From assembly GCF_055900595.2 (NCBI RefSeq), contig NZ_CM148325.1: a stretch of 64,000 bases of DNA. One strand, 5' to 3'. Shown piece by piece: positions 13,797-56,429 of this stretch (positions are counted from its first letter, which is position 1; every line of letters starts with the position of its first letter). The position numbers were made by a program, and so were the translations under genes. The notes under the pieces are model-generated. The model was not told where the DNA came from and ran no database searches. It saw only the letters and a program-made list of their open reading frames with translations.

Positions 13797-13890
13797 ATAT
13801 ATGGATTGAAAACTTTACTTTATGTGTTATCGTTACGTCATCCTCGCTGAGGATCAACTATCGCAAACGAGCATAAACAGGATCGCCATC

Positions 13891-14961
13891 ATGCAAAAAG
13901 ACGCGCTGAATAACGTACATATTACCGACGAACAAGTTTTAATGACTCCGGAACAACTGAAGGCCGCTTTTCCATTAAGCCTGCAACAGGAAGCCCAGAT
14001 TGCTGACTCGCGTAAAACCATTTCAGATATTATCGCCGGGCGGGATCCTCGTCTGTTGGTAGTATGTGGTCCTTGTTCCATTCATGATCCGGAAACTGCT
14101 CTGGAATATGCTCGTCGATTTAAAGCCCTTGCCGCAGAGGTCAGCGATAGCCTCTATCTGGTAATGCGCGTCTATTTTGAAAAACCCCGTACCACTGTCG
14201 GCTGGAAAGGGTTAATTAACGATCCCCATATGGATGGCTCTTTTGATGTAGAAGCCGGGCTGCAGATCGCGCGTAAATTGCTGCTTGAGCTGGTGAATAT
14301 GGGACTGCCACTGGCGACGGAAGCGTTAGATCCAAATAGCCCGCAATACCTGGGCGATCTGTTTAGCTGGTCAGCAATTGGTGCTCGTACAACGGAATCG
14401 CAAACACACCGTGAAATGGCCTCCGGGCTTTCCATGCCGGTTGGTTTTAAAAACGGCACCGACGGCAGCCTTGCAACGGCTATTAACGCTATGCGCGCCG
14501 CCGCCCAGCCGCACCGTTTTGTTGGCATTAACCAGGCAGGGCAGGTTGCGTTGCTACAAACTCAGGGGAATCCGGACGGGCATGTGATCCTGCGCGGTGG
14601 TAAAGCGCCAAACTATAGCCCTGCGGATGTTGCGCAATGTGAAAAAGAGATGGAACAGGCGGGACTGCGCCCGTCTCTGATGGTAGATTGCAGCCACGGT
14701 AATTCCAATAAAGATTATCGCCGTCAGCCTGCGGTGGCAGAATCCGTGGTTGCTCAAATCAAAGATGGCAATCGCTCAATTATTGGTCTGATGATCGAAA
14801 GTAATATCCACGAGGGCAATCAGTCTTCCGAGCAACCGCGCAGTGAAATGAAATACGGTGTATCCGTAACCGATGCCTGCATTAGTTGGGAAATGACCGA
14901 TGCCTTGCTGCGTGAAATTCATCAGGATCTGAACGGGCAGCTGACGGCTCGCGTGGCTTAA
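13891..14961 (+). CDS. aroF: DAHP synthase, Tyr-sensitive (AroF)
   Basis: [30 protein letters not shown]... 356 aa. Confidence 0.95.
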
Positions 14962-16135: not shown

Positions 16136-17296
16136 TTATGCCGGATCGACTGGTACCACATTCTCGCTTGGGTAACAGCCCAGGACTTTCATCGAGCGAG
16201 TGATTTCACCTAGCTCTTTCAACGCCTGTTGCATTTCCGCTGATTCCAGATTGGCCTGAATATCCAGATAAAACATCTCTTCCCACGGGTTTCCGTGAAT
16301 CGGGCGTGATTCCAGACGGGTCATAATCAGACTGTGATTGCGCAGTACCAGCAACGCTTCAACCAGTGCACCAGCATGTTGTCCGGTCGCCATTAACAAC
16401 GTCGTTTTCGCCGGAACCTGGTCAGAAACGTTAATGGCTTTACGTGCCAACACCACAAATCGGGTGAAGTTTTGTCGCTGATTCGCTTCAATACGCTCCA
16501 GTACCTGCAAACCGTACAAAGTGCCGCCAGCTTCGCTTCCCAACGCAGCAACATGCGGTGATTTTGCCTGTGCAACCTTTTCCATTGCCGCAGACGTACT
16601 TTCGGTATATTCAATCTTCCAGTGCGGATAACGATTAAGGAATTTGCTGCATTGCTGGAATGGCTGCGGATGGCTGTAGACCGTATTGATGGCGGATAAA
16701 TCAGTAGTGCCGGAGACCAACAAACAATGATCGATAGTTAACGTCATCTCGCCAACAATCGACAAACTGGTATGTTGCAGCAGATCGTAAACGTCGTTTA
16801 TGGCACCGGAGCTGGTATTTTCAATCGGTACGACGGCATAGTCGGCCTGGCCGGTTTCCACCTGATTAAAAATATCGGCAAATTTGGCGCAGCCACTTTC
16901 AATGAATTGCTCAAAGTGACGCGCAGCGTACTGACGAGCGGCAAGATGTGAATAGGAGCCTTTGGGGCCGAGAAAAGCGATGCGTGCTGAGTGCGGATTA
17001 ATTTGATTGAGATGTTGCTGGAGCAGTGCCTGCTGAGTTAATACGGAATCTTCAATGATGAGCTGGAACAGGCGAGTAATGTAATGGGCGTCCAGATGGT
17101 GCGCTTTACCGAGCGTAATTAATCTTTCCAGCAAATCGCGTTCGCGATCAATATCACGTACCGGGCGATGAGAGAGCAGTTTGGCTTTTCCCACCTCGAC
17201 GGCCAGTTCGCGCCGCTCTGCCAGTAATGCTAATAATTTTTCATCCAGCGCGCTGATTTTCTCTCGCAGCGCCAGTAACGGGTTTTCCGATGTCAT
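16136..17296 (-). CDS. pheA: Bifunctional chorismate mutase / prephenate dehydratase (P-protein)
   Basis: [22 protein letters not shown]... 386 aa. Confidence 0.95.
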
Positions 17297-17318
17297 AGTG
17301 TTGCCTTTTTGTTATCAA

Positions 17319-17349
17319 TAAAAAAGGCCCCCCGGTTTGGGAGGCCTTA
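17319..17349 (-). terminator. pheA attenuator terminator
   Basis: Minus-strand RNA AAGGCCTCCCAAACCGGGGGGCCTTTTTT between pheL and pheA. Confidence 0.8.
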
Positions 17350-17394
17350 TTGTTCGTCTTCGCATTCTGTTTCACACGACGAAACGCCTCCCAT

Positions 17395-17442
17395 TCAGGG
17401 GAAGGTAAAAAAGAATGCGAAGAAAAACGGTGTGTGTTTCAT
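17395..17442 (-). CDS. pheL: pheA leader peptide PheL (15 aa, Phe-rich)
   Basis: Minus-strand ATG at 17442 encodes [15 protein letters not shown]; not in ORF track because it is under 60 aa. Confidence 0.85.
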   Translation of the reverse strand: [15 protein letters not shown]

Positions 17443-17497
17443 GTTTGTTTCCTTAAGTGACTTCAGTACAGTACCCGTACTGTTTTCACGCTGTCAA

Positions 17498-17522
17498 CAA
17501 AAAACGCGCCCGAAGGCGCGTT
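17498..17522 (-). terminator. Rho-independent terminator downstream of raiA
   Basis: cgcgcccgaaggcgcg hairpin with U-run on the minus-strand transcript. Confidence 0.7.
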
Positions 17523-17545
17523 GGCGATACACTCAATATAAAGGA

Positions 17546-17941
<396 letters not shown>

Positions 17942-18120
17942 TCAAAATGTGTGATGGAAATCTCATAATTTTGTCACTTTTTGTCAACGAATCTTTTTTG
18001 TGAGAAATCGCAGGAAGAGGTGTTTTTTTACTTGAGGAATATCTCAAAGCGAGCCATATTTGATGAGATCGATAGTGACTAAATCGCTTCAGTTTCACAA
18101 CTAACAGAATAAAAAAACGG

Positions 18121-18133
18121 CAGCTCAAGGCTG
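18121..18133. repeat. Left copy of the direct repeat flanking the IS4 element (putative target-site duplication)
   Basis: cagctcaaggctg here versus cagctcaagggctg at 19655-19668 (one G difference). Confidence 0.6.
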
Positions 18134-18146
18134 TAATGCCAGTCAG

Positions 18147-18858
18147 TTAAGCAACTGACTGGCTCTTTTTCGGGGCTGTGGGGTATTTCCAGGGCCTCTC
18201 CTTTACCACTCTCGGGAAGGCCCTTTCCCTTCTTGTCGGTAATTTCACTGGTTGTCCCATACTTGCAAGATCGCGCATCAGCTCCGGTATACGTCCCGGT
18301 GAAGCGCATGGCGTCCGTCATCGACGTCAGCAGATGGCTGGTCAGTTCCATCTGGCAGACCATTTTGACCTGCGGGTAGAGCGCCGGGTTCTCGGCATGT
18401 GTCTGGCGGGGGAAGGCTGCATCGTTCTCTGGTGTATCCGGTGTGCGCCAGAACACACCATCGATGGCCAGCAGGGTCAGGCCGCACCAGTGCGGATGCA
18501 GCGTGGCGTTATGCCAGAGCTGCGCTGTTTTCGTGAACACGCGTCGGACAGCCTCACTTCCCAGGCGCTGGCGGGCCTGAATAACGGCACTGGGGGCAAC
18601 GAAGGGGCGATTGCCTGGCAGCATGATGTCCAGGCGATTCACAATCTGGTGAAGAGGTTCTTTACGCTCAAGCGCCATGCCAACAATACACCAGACCATC
18701 ATTTCGAGGGGAAGACGGCGCTTGCGTAGCGTTACAGTACCTGATTCGGCAAGGCAACGAGAGATGAGTTCGGGGTCGAGGTAATCCCCCAGAAAAGTCA
18801 GTGGGTTACGCAGAGAATCGTAACGGGATACCAAATCAAGGGCCTGTCCAATGAGCAT
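18147..18858 (-). pseudogene. IS4 transposase (InsG-like) pseudogene: N-terminal ~175 aa intact, then internal deletions and frameshift
   Basis: MLIGQALDLVSRYDSLRNPL...HLLT then jumps to SMTDAMRF and loses frame; 259-aa ORF versus 442 aa for intact IS4 transposase (length recalled from memory). Confidence 0.75.
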
Positions 18859-18894: not shown

Positions 18895-19607
18895 AATGCG
18901 CCTGTAAGGCTCTGTTACCAGCCGCGCCCTAACAGGCGCATACGATCTGACATTTGCATTCAACTTCGTTACTTACGGCCCGTAAACGGGCTGCCCGGAT
19001 ATGGAATCGATAACTGCTCCCCCATTTTATCCTCTTCAAGCTGGTGCTTTATGTAGTCCTGTATCTTCGCCGTGTTCTTACCCACCGTATCGACATAGTA
19101 CCCTCGGCACCAGAACTCCCTGTTTCTGTATTTGAATTTCAAATCCCCAAACTGCTCGTAAAGCATCAGACTGCTTTTCCCTTTCAGATATCCCATAAAG
19201 CCGGATACGCTCATTTTGGGTGGGATTTCCACAAGCATATGGATATGATCTGCGCAGCACTCTGCTTCCAGAATCCGTACGCTTTTCCACTCACACAGCT
19301 TTCTCAAAATACTGCCTATCGCCCTACGCTTCTCTCCGTAAAACGCCAGTCTTCGGTATTTCGGCGCAAAAACTATGTGATATTTACAGTTCCAGCGGGT
19401 GTGCGCTAAGCTCTTTTCGTCCCCCATTGGGACCCCCTTTTGATTTCTTGTTTGACACTTGCAGTTGCCAGACCGCAAGGTGTTTTAACAAATCAAAAGG
19501 GGTTTTAATAACTGGCTCAAAGCTGAAAGCTTTCCGGAACCCCCAGCCTAGCTGGGGGTTTTCTGTGCACAAAAAAATCCGGAAACGAGTGAGCGTTTCC
19601 GGATTCT
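18895..19607 (-). mobile_element. IS200-like element (IS200/IS605 family), approx. 0.71 kb, boundaries +/- ~20 bp
   Basis: Contains Y1/HUH transposase tnpA, a terminator-like perfect palindrome near the left end (19577-19603), a 5'-UTR palindrome (19540-19558) and a 10-bp inverted repeat after the stop (18896-18905 / 18932-18941); extent inferred from expected IS4 leader length. Confidence 0.7.
18969..19427 (-). CDS. tnpA: IS200 transposase TnpA (Y1 HUH single-strand transposase)
   Basis: MGDEKSLAHTRWNCKYHIVFAPKYRR...HIHMLVEIPPK... 152 aa; the HxH (HIHML) motif is directly visible; ORF-track start at 19478 is an upstream extension. Confidence 0.9.
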   Translation of the reverse strand: MGDEKSLAHTRWNCKYHIVFAPKYRRLAFYGEKRRAIGSILRKLCEWKSVRILEAECCADHIHMLVEIPPKMSVSGFMGYLKGKSSLMLYEQFGDLKFKYRNREFWCRGYYVDTVGKNTAKIQDYIKHQLEEDKMGEQLSIPYPGSPFTGRK

Positions 19608-22273: not shown

Positions 22274-22334
22274 CCTAAAGAATCAAGACGATCCGGTACG
22301 CGTGATTTTCTTTTCACATTAATCTGGTCAATAA

Positions 22335-22364
22335 CCTTGAATAATTGAGGGATGACCTCATTTA
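22335..22364 (+). promoter_or_regulatory. Sigma-32 promoter of clpB
   Basis: ccttgaa (-35, 22335-22341) and cctcattta (-10, 22356-22364). Confidence 0.75.
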
Positions 22365-22402
22365 ATCTCCAGTAGCAACTTTGATCCGTTATGGGAGGAG
22401 TT

Positions 22403-24976
22403 ATGCGTCTGGATCGTCTTACTAATAAATTCCAGCTTGCTCTTGCCGATGCCCAATCACTTGCACTCGGGCACGACAACCAATTCATCGAACCACTTCA
22501 TTTAATGAGCGCCCTGCTGAATCAGGAAGGGGGTTCGGTTAGTCCTTTATTAACATCCGCCGGCATCAATGCTGGTCAGTTGCGCACAGATATCAATCAG
22601 GCATTAAATCGTTTACCGCAGGTTGAAGGCACTGGCGGCGATGTCCAGCCCTCACAGGATCTGGTGCGCGTTCTTAATCTTTGCGACAAGCTGGCGCAAA
22701 AACGTGGTGATAACTTTATCTCGTCAGAACTGTTCGTTCTGGCGGCACTTGAGTCTCGCGGCACGCTGGCCGACATCCTGAAAGCAGCAGGGGCGACCAC
22801 CGCCAACATTACTCAAGCGATTGAACAAATGCGTGGAGGTGAAAGCGTGAACGATCAAGGAGCTGAAGACCAACGTCAGGCTTTGAAAAAATACACTATC
22901 GACCTCACCGAACGAGCCGAACAAGGCAAACTCGATCCGGTGATTGGCCGTGATGAAGAAATTCGCCGTACCATTCAGGTACTGCAACGTCGTACTAAAA
23001 ATAACCCGGTGCTGATTGGTGAACCAGGCGTTGGTAAAACAGCCATCGTTGAAGGTCTGGCTCAGCGTATTATCAATGGCGAAGTGCCGGAAGGGTTGAA
23101 AGGCCGCCGCGTACTGGCGCTGGATATGGGCGCGCTGGTGGCTGGGGCGAAATATCGCGGTGAGTTTGAAGAGCGTTTAAAAGGCGTGCTTAACGATCTT
23201 GCCAAACAGGAAGGCAACGTCATCCTGTTTATCGACGAATTACATACCATGGTCGGCGCGGGTAAAGCCGATGGCGCAATGGATGCCGGCAACATGCTGA
23301 AACCGGCGCTGGCGCGTGGTGAATTGCACTGCGTAGGTGCCACGACACTGGACGAATATCGCCAGTACATCGAAAAAGATGCTGCGCTGGAACGTCGTTT
23401 CCAGAAAGTGTTTGTTGCCGAGCCAACCGTGGAAGACACCATTGCTATTCTGCGTGGCCTGAAAGAACGTTACGAACTGCACCACCATGTGCAAATTACT
23501 GACCCGGCAATTGTTGCAGCTGCGACATTATCTCATCGCTACATTGCTGACCGTCAGCTGCCGGATAAAGCCATCGACCTGATCGATGAAGCAGCATCCA
23601 GCATTCGTATGCAGATTGACTCAAAACCAGAAGAACTCGACCGACTCGATCGTCGTATCATCCAGCTCAAACTGGAACAACAGGCGTTAATGAAAGAGTC
23701 TGATGAAGCCAGTAAAAAACGCCTGGATATGCTCAACGAAGAACTGAGCGACAAAGAACGTCAGTATTCCGAGTTAGAAGAAGAGTGGAAAGCTGAGAAA
23801 GCGTCGCTTTCTGGTACGCAGACCATTAAAGCGGAACTGGAACAGGCGAAAATCGCCATTGAACAGGCTCGCCGTGTGGGTGATCTGGCGCGGATGTCTG
23901 AACTGCAATATGGCAAAATTCCAGAACTGGAAAAGCAACTGGAAGCCGCAACGCAGCTCGAAGGCAAAACTATGCGTCTCTTGCGTAATAAAGTGACCGA
24001 CGCCGAAATTGCTGAAGTGCTGGCGCGTTGGACGGGGATTCCGGTTTCTCGCATGATGGAAAGCGAGCGCGAAAAACTGCTGCGTATGGAGCAAGAGCTG
24101 CACCATCGCGTTATTGGTCAGAACGAAGCGGTTGATGCGGTATCTAACGCTATTCGTCGTAGCCGTGCGGGGCTTGCTGACCCGAATCGCCCGATTGGTT
24201 CATTCCTGTTCCTCGGCCCAACGGGTGTGGGGAAAACTGAGCTTTGTAAGGCGCTGGCGAACTTTATGTTTGATAGCGACGAGGCGATGGTCCGTATCGA
24301 TATGTCCGAGTTTATGGAGAAACACTCGGTGTCTCGTCTGGTTGGTGCGCCTCCGGGATATGTCGGTTATGAAGAAGGTGGCTACCTGACCGAAGCGGTG
24401 CGTCGTCGTCCGTATTCCGTCATCCTGCTGGATGAAGTGGAAAAAGCGCATCCGGATGTCTTCAACATTCTGTTGCAGGTACTGGATGATGGGCGTCTGA
24501 CTGACGGGCAGGGGAGAACGGTCGACTTCCGTAATACGGTTGTCATTATGACCTCTAACCTCGGTTCCGATTTGATTCAGGAACGCTTCGGTGAACTGGA
24601 TTATGCGCACATGAAAGAGCTGGTACTCGGTGTGGTAAGCCATAACTTCCGTCCGGAATTCATTAACCGTATCGATGAAGTGGTGGTCTTCCATCCGCTG
24701 GGTGAACAGCACATTGCGTCGATTGCGCAGATTCAGTTGAAACGTCTGTACAAACGTCTGGAAGAACGTGGTTATGAAATCCACATTTCTGACGAGGCGC
24801 TGAAACTGCTGAGCGAGAACGGTTACGATCCGGTCTATGGTGCACGTCCTCTGAAACGTGCTATCCAGCAGCAGATCGAAAACCCGCTGGCACAGCAAAT
24901 ACTGTCTGGTGAATTGGTTCCGGGTAAAGTTATTCGCCTGGAAGTTAATGAAGACAGGATTGTCGCCGTCCAGTAA
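22403..24976 (+). CDS. clpB: Chaperone ClpB (Hsp100 disaggregase)
   Basis: [27 protein letters not shown]... 857 aa, two AAA+ modules; ORF-track 22391 start is 4 codons upstream. Confidence 0.96.
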
Positions 24977-25417: not shown

Positions 25418-26959
<1,542 letters not shown>

Positions 26960-27044: not shown

Positions 27045-27120
27045 GTCCCCTTCGTCTAGAGGCCCAGGACACCGCCCTTTCACGGCGGTAACAGGGGTTC
27101 GAATCCCCTAGGGGACGCCA
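27045..27120 (+). tRNA. gltW: tRNA-Glu (UUC) in the 16S-23S spacer
   Basis: GTCCCCTTCGTCTAGAGGCCCAGGACACCGCCCTTTCACGGCGGTAACAGGGGTTCGAATCCCCTAGGGGACGCCA. Confidence 0.97.
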
Positions 27121-27314: not shown

Positions 27315-30219
<2,905 letters not shown>

Positions 30220-30312: not shown

Positions 30313-30432
30313 TGCCTGGCGGCCTTAGCGCGGTGGTCCCACCTGACCCCATGCCGAACTCAGAAGTGAAACGCCGTAGCGCCGATGGTAGTGTGGGGTC
30401 TCCCCATGCGAGAGTAGGGAACTGCCAGGCAT
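30313..30432 (+). rRNA. rrfG: 5S ribosomal RNA
   Basis: TGCCTGGCGGC...GGAACTGCCAGGCAT, 120 nt. Confidence 0.97.
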
Positions 30433-42075: not shown

Positions 42076-42272
42076 TGCCGGGCTTAAACCCGGCACCTAA
42101 CTTGTCGACGAAGTGCGTTTTGTTCATGCCGGATGCGGCGTGAACGCCTTATCCGGCCTACAAGATCGTGCAAATTCAATATATTGCATGAGCCATGTAG
42201 GCCTGATAAGCGTAGAGCATCAGGCAGTTTTGCGTTTGCCAGCACTTTTAATTCCGGGCTTAAACCCGGAAT
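42076..42272. repeat. BIME: two inverted REP elements flanked by near-identical ccgggcttaaacccgg palindromes
   Basis: REP gccggatgcggcgtgaacgccttatccggcctac (42128-42161), inverted REP gtaggcctgataagcgtagagcatcaggc (42197-42225), palindromes at 42078-42093 and 42255-42270. Confidence 0.75.
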
Positions 42273-47753: not shown

Positions 47754-48709
47754 TGAAGCAACTTTGGTTTGCCATGTCATTAGTGACAGGTAGCCTGTTA
47801 TTCTCTGCTAACGCCTCGGCCACTCCCGCGTCCGGGGCGTTATTACAGCAGATGAACCTGGCCAGTCAGTCACTGAATTACGAGCTGTCATTCATCAGCA
47901 TCAATAAACAGGGTGTTGAGTCTCTGCGTTATCGACATGCACGCCTCGATAACCGTCCTCTTGCACAATTGTTGCAAATGGATGGCCCGCGCCGGGAAGT
48001 GGTACAGCGCGGCAATGAAATCAGCTACTTTGAACCGGGCCTTGAACCGTTCACGCTTAATGGCGATTACATTGTTGATTCTCTGCCATCGCTCATCTAT
48101 ACCGATTTCAAACGCCTTTCTCCTTACTACGACTTTATCTCCGTGGGACGCACGCGTATTGCTGATCGTCTTTGCGAAGTCATTCGCGTGGTGGCCCGTG
48201 ATGGCACACGCTACAGCTACATCGTGTGGATGGACACCGAATCGAAATTACCGATGCGGGTTGATCTCCTTGATCGCGATGGTGAAACGCTGGAACAATT
48301 TCGCGTGATTGCTTTTAACGTTAATCAGGATATCAGCAGCAGTATGCAGACGCTGGCGAAAGCAAATCTGCCGCCGCTGCTTTCTGTTCCTGTAGGTGAA
48401 AAAGCTAAATTCAGCTGGACGCCAACCTGGTTGCCACAGGGGTTTAGTGAAGTTTCCAGCAGCCGACGTCCGTTACCGACGATGGACAACATGCCTATCG
48501 AATCACGTCTCTATTCCGACGGATTATTCAGCTTCTCGGTAAACGTTAACCGCGCTACGCCATCGAGCACCGATCAGATGTTGCGCACCGGACGCAGAAC
48601 CGTCAGTACAAGCGTACGTGATAACGCCGAAATCACCATTGTCGGCGAACTGCCGCCGCAAACGGCGAAACGCATTGCCGAGAATATTAAGTTCGGGGCA
48701 GCGCAATGA
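47753..48709 (+). CDS. rseB: Sigma-E regulatory protein RseB
   Basis: 318 aa with signal peptide. Confidence 0.95.
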   Translation: MKQLWFAMSLVTGSLLFSANASATPASGALLQQMNLASQSLNYELSFISINKQGVESLRYRHARLDNRPLAQLLQMDGPRREVVQRGNEISYFEPGLEPFTLNGDYIVDSLPSLIYTDFKRLSPYYDFISVGRTRIADRLCEVIRVVARDGTRYSYIVWMDTESKLPMRVDLLDRDGETLEQFRVIAFNVNQDISSSMQTLAKANLPPLLSVPVGEKAKFSWTPTWLPQGFSEVSSSRRPLPTMDNMPIESRLYSDGLFSFSVNVNRATPSSTDQMLRTGRRTVSTSVRDNAEITIVGELPPQTAKRIAENIKFGAAQ

Positions 48710-49185
48710 TCAAAGAGTGGGCTACGGTCGTCTCCTGGCAAAACGGGCAGGCGCTGGTCAGTTGTGATGTTAAAGCCTCATGCAGCAGCTGTGCTTCCCG
48801 TGTCGGTTGCGGTAGCCGCGTGCTGAATAAACTTGGCCCACAAACCACGCATACCATTGTCGTACCCTGTGATGAACCGTTAGTACCGGGGCAAAAAGTG
48901 GAATTAGGAATCACCGAAGGCAGCCTGCTTAGCTCCGCATTACTGGTTTATATGTCGCCGTTGGTGGGATTATTCCTCATCGCTTCGTTATTTCAGCTAC
49001 TCTTTGCTTCAGATCTTGCAGCATTATGCGGTGCGATTCTCGGCGGCGTTGGTGGATTCCTGATTGCACGCAGCTACTCGCGAAAGTTTGCTGCCCGGGC
49101 AGAATGGCAACCGATCATCTTAAGCGTGGCATTGCCGCCAGGCCTTGTGCGATTTGAAACATCTTCGGAAGACGCGAGCCAGTGA
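48706..49185 (+). CDS. rseC: Sigma-E regulatory protein RseC
   Basis: 159 aa membrane protein; overlaps rseB stop by 4 nt. Confidence 0.93.
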   Translation: MIKEWATVVSWQNGQALVSCDVKASCSSCASRVGCGSRVLNKLGPQTTHTIVVPCDEPLVPGQKVELGITEGSLLSSALLVYMSPLVGLFLIASLFQLLFASDLAALCGAILGGVGGFLIARSYSRKFAARAEWQPIILSVALPPGLVRFETSSEDASQ

Positions 49186-49382
49186 TTTCACTGGCTTTGT
49201 TGCATTTTGCATAACAAATGCGAGGACGTTTCCAGATACCACAATCCATACCGTATGAACATTTCCTCGCCTCAATGTTGTAGTGTAGAATGCGGCGTTT
49301 CTATTAATACAGACGTTAAGCTCAGAACAGCGACTTCTAAAAGCCTGGTTAACCGGGCATTAAGGCACAATAATCATACTTT

Positions 49383-51182
<1,800 letters not shown>

Positions 51183-52172: not shown

Positions 52173-52318
52173 TAGCTTATCTTCGTTCACGTTGTCGCCG
52201 TTATGGCGACAACGTGAATTATTTATGAGATAAATCCCCCGTGGCTAACGACATCCCCCGTCGTTGTGTATAGAATATTCCCCCGAAGTTTAAGGTTGGC
52301 ACCTCCAGGTTGCCACGG

Positions 52319-52410
52319 CACACGAAACAGCGTTGGTCCCCATATACCGGTAAACTGAAACTGCAGCGAAGCAGTTAGCAGAGCCATGTATATCAGGTCT
52401 GTTTCGTGTG
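52319..52410 (+). promoter_or_regulatory. rnc leader long stem (RNase III autoregulatory processing structure)
   Basis: 12-bp perfect inverted repeat cacacgaaacag (52319-52330) / ctgtttcgtgtg (52399-52410) in the 5' UTR of rnc. Confidence 0.65.
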
Positions 52411-52414
52411 CTGA

Positions 52415-54027
<1,613 letters not shown>

Positions 54028-56029: not shown

Positions 56030-56072
56030 AAAAGTAAAACCCCCGAACTGGTAAGGAACGGGGGTTTTACTT
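56030..56072. terminator. Terminator hairpin downstream of acpS
   Basis: aaaacccccgaactggtaaggaacgggggtttt flanked by A/T runs. Confidence 0.7.
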
Positions 56073-56429
56073 TACAACTTTAATTTTGTGCAGCACACGA
56101 TTCCAACAAAAATGATTATGGATCAATTTAGTTATCCTGTACAAGCAACTTGCAATCTTTAGCATAAAAACTCGAGCCTTTACGAAGAAATCGATATTGA
56201 TGAAAAGATTAACGTGACCGCTTTTTGATAAGTACATTAGAATCGGCGTCGTTATTGGATATTTTGCTGTGTTCTACGCCATGCCACTGAATTCCCCCAT
56301 TGAAACGAGTGGTGTCGTCAAAGCTCTGGTGTGGAGTGCGGCACTCGATTCCAATAACTCGCACGTTCAGTTTTGGGGAGATGTAAGGGCTAATCTGAAC
56401 GGCTGCATTCCTTGTTTAAGGAAAAACGA

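Follow-up and report, generated by a model that had tools for sequence, protein, structure and literature searches.

The stretch of DNA analyzed here, referred to as the window, comprises 64,000 nucleotides of contig NZ_CM148325.1 (NCBI RefSeq assembly GCF_055900595.2) and carries pheA on its minus strand, with a short leader open reading frame (ORF) and an intrinsic terminator directly 5' of the gene (table 1). The neighboring genes encoding RaiA, TyrA, and AroF match those of the K-12 pheA locus. The interval 17297-17442 runs from the leader ATG to the last base before pheA. A preliminary description had placed a 15-codon leader with seven Phe codons in exactly this interval, and both the codon count and the coordinates (ATG at 17442, pheA start at 17296) are confirmed. 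The ORF reads ATG AAA CAC ACA CCG TTT TTC TTC GCA TTC TTT TTT ACC TTC CCC TGA, with Phe at codons 6-8, 10-12, and 14, that is, two runs of three plus one. The peptide as spelled in that description was, however, one residue off, giving the Ile4 of the K-12 allele (ATA) where the window has Thr4 (ACA). A search of the 64-kb window in all six frames for six or more Phe within 10 codons found pheL alone, and none of 100 block shuffles produced such a stretch. The GC-rich hairpin and U-run previously noted before pheA are also found as described, the terminator scan returning a 10-bp stem (17348-17324) with seven G-C pairs, followed by TTTTATT and located 28 nt before pheA. The same scan found six terminator-like sites in 16900-18000, where 1.6 were expected. 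Mechanically called plus-strand ORFs overlapping the region (17309-17968, 17350-17460, and others) have no support.

Table 1. Features of the pheL-pheA locus and further annotated elements of the window (positions are those of the window; nucleotides as read on the strand given).
Feature	Position	Strand	Basis and details
pheA	16136..17296	-	Bifunctional chorismate mutase/prephenate dehydratase; NF007910, 820 bits, residues 1-385/386
pheA Shine-Dalgarno AAGG	17307-17304	-	Sequence
3:4 intrinsic terminator (attenuator)	17320..17348	-	Stem AAGGCCUCCC / GGGGGGCCUU 17348-17324, loop AAACC, U-run 17325-17320
2:3 antiterminator stem-loop	17338..17393	-	GGGAGGC 17392-17386 with GCCUCCC 17345-17339; ribosome-masked folding
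1:2 pause/protector hairpin	17352..17428	-	5' strand 17428-17399 (Phe codons to CCC), 3' strand 17392-17352; minimum free energy (MFE) and Rfam consensus structure
UUC_CCC_UGA "shifty stop"	17395..17403	-	Known +1 frameshift site; TTC CCC TGA at 17403-17395
pheL leader ORF	17395..17442	-	ATG 17442-17440, stop TGA 17397-17395; pheL in identical E. coli records
pheL Phe codons	17427-17419, 17415-17407, 17403-17401	-	Sequence
pheL Shine-Dalgarno AAGGA	17450..17454	-	Putative, from sequence; 7 nt 5' of ATG
Differences from K-12	17464, 17432, 17335	-	Alignment; 5' UTR (G for A), codon 4, terminator loop (C for U)
Candidate -10 TACTGT	17473-17468	-	Putative; 18-nt spacer from TTGACA
Putative -35 hexamer TTGACA, pheL-pheA promoter	17492..17497	-	Read from sequence, same in K-12
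raiA terminator	17522-17503	-	Upstream of pheL promoter region
raiA	17887-17546	-	Upstream neighbor
RyfD	22284-22422		Rfam
rrn operon, complete	16S 25418-26959, tRNA 27045-27117, 23S 27315-30219, 5S 30315-30430		Rfam
ES036	42162-42204		Rfam
AsrC, antisense to rseC	48670-49501		Rfam
rncO	52285-52499		Rfam
ohsC	56031-56107		Rfam

Upstream of the leader ORF, the putative -35 and -10 elements listed in table 1 suggest a promoter between the raiA terminator and pheL. A consensus promoter scan of 16900-18000 called no sigma-70-like site, the TTGACA/TACTGT pair being missed because its -10 hexamer matches the consensus at only three of six positions; the promoter assignment is therefore a putative one.

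Family membership is clear. The Rfam model Phe_leader (RF01859) matches 17443-17318 of the minus strand over its full length (model positions 1-125/125) and scores 132.2 bits (gathering score, 55). Sub-threshold matches to other Rfam models over the region (Arrc14, ctRNA_p42d, STnc130, and sX6) were dismissed, all of them falling far short of the respective gathering scores. All but one of the 5426 complete E. coli genomes (5425) contain the 281-nt region, under the annotations pheL and Phe leader region, and it is 100% identical to that of strain Z0117EC0005; the RefSeq labels carried by the identical sequence are "pheA operon leader peptide PheL" and "Phe leader region." Alignment with MG1655 gives 278 identical positions out of 281, none of the three differences lying in a helix. 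The K-12 pheL/pheA attenuator (a "group 1" pheL; Gurvich et al. 2011, PMC3082878) has the same architecture, spacing, predicted fold energy, and UUC_CCC_UGA end as the one in the window, and its locus has the same neighbors (raiA upstream, pheA downstream, tyrA-aroF convergent); it differs in Ile4, one loop base, and one base of the 5' UTR, and the pairing is unaffected. At codon 4 (17431-17433), the exact 30-mer with ACA occurs in 3993 of the 5426 genomes and that with ATA, a rare codon, in 1383. Thr4 is therefore the majority allele of E. coli, and the oft-quoted Ile4 of K-12 a minority one. Since the leader of Escherichia albertii also has Thr at this position, the K-12 peptide is probably the derived form.

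To explore the alternative structures of the leader RNA, we combined plain folding with folding in which a simulated ribosome was represented as an unpaired block, covering the A-site codon together with the 15 nt before it and the 12 nt past it. The 146-nt stretch 17297-17442 is far more stable than dinucleotide shuffles of itself (MFE of -51.7 kcal/mol vs. -31.3 +/- 3.8; z = -5.4), and its predicted structure and energy are the same as in K-12. The preliminary description had proposed RNA folding as a check for mutually exclusive structures, and these are indeed predicted: GCCUCCC is common to the terminator and the antiterminator, and the position of the simulated ribosome decides between them. 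With the A-site on any of the Phe codons from 6 to 12 and the transcript extending to the terminator loop, GCCUCCC (segment 3) pairs with GGGAGGC (segment 2) with P = 1.00, the antiterminator contributing approximately -23 kcal/mol (-22.5 kcal/mol when folded in isolation). If the ribosome is absent, or its A-site has reached codon 15 or the stop, the same transcript gives a probability of 0.00 for this pairing, and once the full leader with its 3' arm is included the terminator (3:4) forms with P = 1.00. Nevertheless, a purely thermodynamic switch is rejected. When the transcript is allowed to reach the U-run and equilibrium is assumed, the terminator is still favored with a ribosome on the Phe codons (P(3:4) = 0.71-1.0). 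This calls for a kinetic switch, in which segment 2 pairs with segment 3 before segment 4 exists. Such an order-of-synthesis switch is the accepted model, and we assume the corresponding order of folding here.

An additional pairing appeared in the full-length folds, in which the antiterminator wins only alongside it. In 17304-17327 of the minus strand, the U-run GCCUUUUU pairs with the purine-rich Shine-Dalgarno region of pheA, AAAAAGGC, whenever the antiterminator forms. These positions are 87-100% paired in relatives, with zero compensatory changes, and the pairing probably represents the trivial complementarity of a U-rich and a purine-rich segment.

We examined the conservation of the element in 80 pheA loci from different Enterobacterales species, ranging from Escherichia albertii to Erwinia. 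A Phe-rich leader ORF is found in all 80, starting 145-165 nt upstream of pheA, except for approximately 214 nt in Raoultella terrigena (L043, 986-1200), where about 70 extra nucleotides lie between the attenuator and pheA. A core of 10 residues in the peptide is near-invariant, and residues 2-5, position 4 included, vary freely. All 17 relatives tested against the Phe_leader model, a sample chosen to include the oddest loci, score above its threshold (99-126 bits). The covariation alignment comprised 79 sequences, of which 76 are distinct. Among these, the pause hairpin and terminator are 95.7% paired, compared with 44-63% in slid controls, and six pairs have changed on both sides, a number reached by none of 500 shuffles. 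Five pairs with both-side changes lie in the pause hairpin, whose three helices are 98%, 81%, and 98% paired; in the terminator, 97% paired among relatives, one G-C pair is replaced by A-U through compensatory changes in seven sequences. For the antiterminator, measures of covariation among the 76 distinct relatives do not exceed those of shuffles, because its 7-bp core is itself near-invariant; the pairing potential is kept everywhere. Near-invariance of segments 2 and 3 across some 80 species is what is expected where each strand has two alternative partners.

Some of these relatives depart from the common arrangement. In Trabulsiella odontotermitis, Citrobacter amalonaticus (with a 1-nt insertion), and two Mangrovibacter species (L024, L030, L070, and L076; about 1050-1200 in each), the usual leader stop is missing and the ORF continues for eight codons into segment 2, ending in FVV or FVI; the Phe_leader scores are 99-119 bits. 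A ribosome finishing at the extended stop would still cover segment 2. The leader of Kosakonia cowanii (L062, 1053-1178) has only five Phe (MMKNTPFLFALFFTFPS).

The 3' end of pheL in the window, UUC_CCC_UGA, places it in group 1, which PMC3082878 defines by a conserved nucleotide sequence with this ending. Beyond this shifty stop, 51 codons can be read in the +1 frame, up to 17241, which ends 54-56 nt inside pheA, whereas PMC3082878 places the end for E. coli 80 nt past the start of pheA; read-through of the UGA in the 0 frame would add 15 codons. In K-12, +1 frameshifting amounts to about 15%, with no apparent effect on the expression of pheA (PMC3082878), and extended PheL products have been confirmed and attributed largely to the weak K-12 RF2 (PMC5373646). 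One might propose that in natural E. coli lineages with Thr4, presumably with a fully active RF2, frameshifting or UGA read-through is not incidental and either tunes basal pheA expression or yields a functional extended peptide, a proposal we regard as very unlikely.

Mobile elements are found near the locus. Between raiA and bamD, an interval that has no insertion in K-12, the minus strand of the window carries an IS4-family transposase ORF with an internal deletion or frameshift (18079-18858) and an IS200/IS605 tnpA (18969-19478), the latter overlapped by the IS200-associated Rfam RNA STnc490 (19437-19560). As this composite arrangement occurs in only 58 of the 5426 complete E. coli genomes, it marks a lineage. 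Such rare insertions, the nearest at least about 640 bp upstream, together with the three positions at which the window differs from K-12, could be taken to indicate an attenuator that has decayed or been altered in this strain to the point of losing function, whether through Thr4, the change in the terminator loop, or the insertions themselves. However, the changes at 17464, 17432, and 17335 affect no base pair and leave the MFE structure and its energy equal to those of K-12, and Thr4, as seen above, is the majority allele at a position free to vary among species. The insertion elements lie beyond raiA and its terminator and hence outside the pheL promoter. Loss of function thus appears extremely improbable. 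A reading that leaves the Phe-rich ORF untranslated and reduces the region to a constitutive partial terminator or small RNA-like transcript would draw on the stability of the short RNA left by attenuation and on the weak small-RNA matches overlapping the region (Arrc14, 27 bits vs. a gathering score of 99), but these matches lie far below threshold, the ORF has a Shine-Dalgarno sequence and an ATG, its 10-residue core is kept as amino acids with synonymous TTT/TTC variation across species, and both PheL products and ribosome density on pheL have been detected (PMC5373646, PMC3082878), so that we give this reading practically no weight.

Two further aspects of the window concern its annotation. 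The mechanical aroF ORF (13822-14961, plus strand) starts 23 codons upstream of the match to the DAHP-synthase profile, and translation probably begins instead at an ATG near 13891 (MQKDALNN...). The Rfam matches distributed over 22284-56107 (table 1) fit the 58-min region of E. coli.

Taken together, we conclude with a probability of roughly 97% that the element is an ordinary, intact pheL leader peptide and pheA transcription attenuator of Escherichia coli, acting through the ribosome. The intact, classic attenuation arrangement asserted in the preliminary description is thus upheld, by the full-length Phe_leader match, by the position of pheA downstream, by the RefSeq labels of the identical sequence, and by the predicted mutually exclusive structures. 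Observed or computed here are the leader ORF and terminator, the two competing pairings with the way they respond to the simulated footprint, membership in the Phe_leader family, and conservation. Other components of the regulatory mechanism (the promoter, pausing of the polymerase, the sequence of folding events, and the response to Phe itself) would follow by analogy with the K-12 literature; the 1:2 / 2:3 / 3:4 scheme is set out for the K-12 element in PMC3082878. Transcription would start downstream of the raiA terminator, and RNA polymerase would pause past the 1:2 hairpin, after which a ribosome would begin translation of pheL; in vitro measurements of a pause at pheL, enhanced by NusA, are given in PMC9291695. 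With plentiful Phe-tRNA(Phe), the ribosome would pass the seven Phe codons and reach the UGA, covering segment 2 and leaving segment 3 free for segment 4, so that the terminator would form and the transcript would end at the U-run before pheA. With charged tRNA(Phe) scarce, the ribosome would stall on Phe codons 6-12, masking segment 1 and exposing segment 2, which would capture segment 3 once transcribed; no terminator would then form and the polymerase would continue into pheA. For K-12, basal expression is about 10% of the Phe-starved level (PMC3082878), and read-through into pheA rises when charged tRNA(Phe) is limiting, according to literature cited in the same source.

The logic of the element is that of the trpL, hisL, leuL, thrL, and ilvL attenuators, each a short ORF rich in cognate codons with a pause hairpin (1:2), an antiterminator (2:3), and a terminator (3:4) (PMC3082878, PMC9291695), and within this group the 1:2 hairpin of pheL is unusually stable and has been classed as "hyperstable" (PMC9291695). 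These attenuators differ from the present one in their regulatory codons and sequences, pheL sensing Phe only. The pheM leader of pheST is likewise rich in Phe codons and senses the charging of tRNA(Phe). It belongs, however, to another locus and another gene (Phe-tRNA synthetase), has another sequence and Rfam family, and is absent from the window; pheM is mentioned in PMC9291695. The pheL-pheA attenuator described here is already known and is a standard member of a textbook family, and the value of its recognition lies mostly in correct annotation. In this strain, pheA is expected to be under the control of tRNA(Phe) charging, as in K-12.
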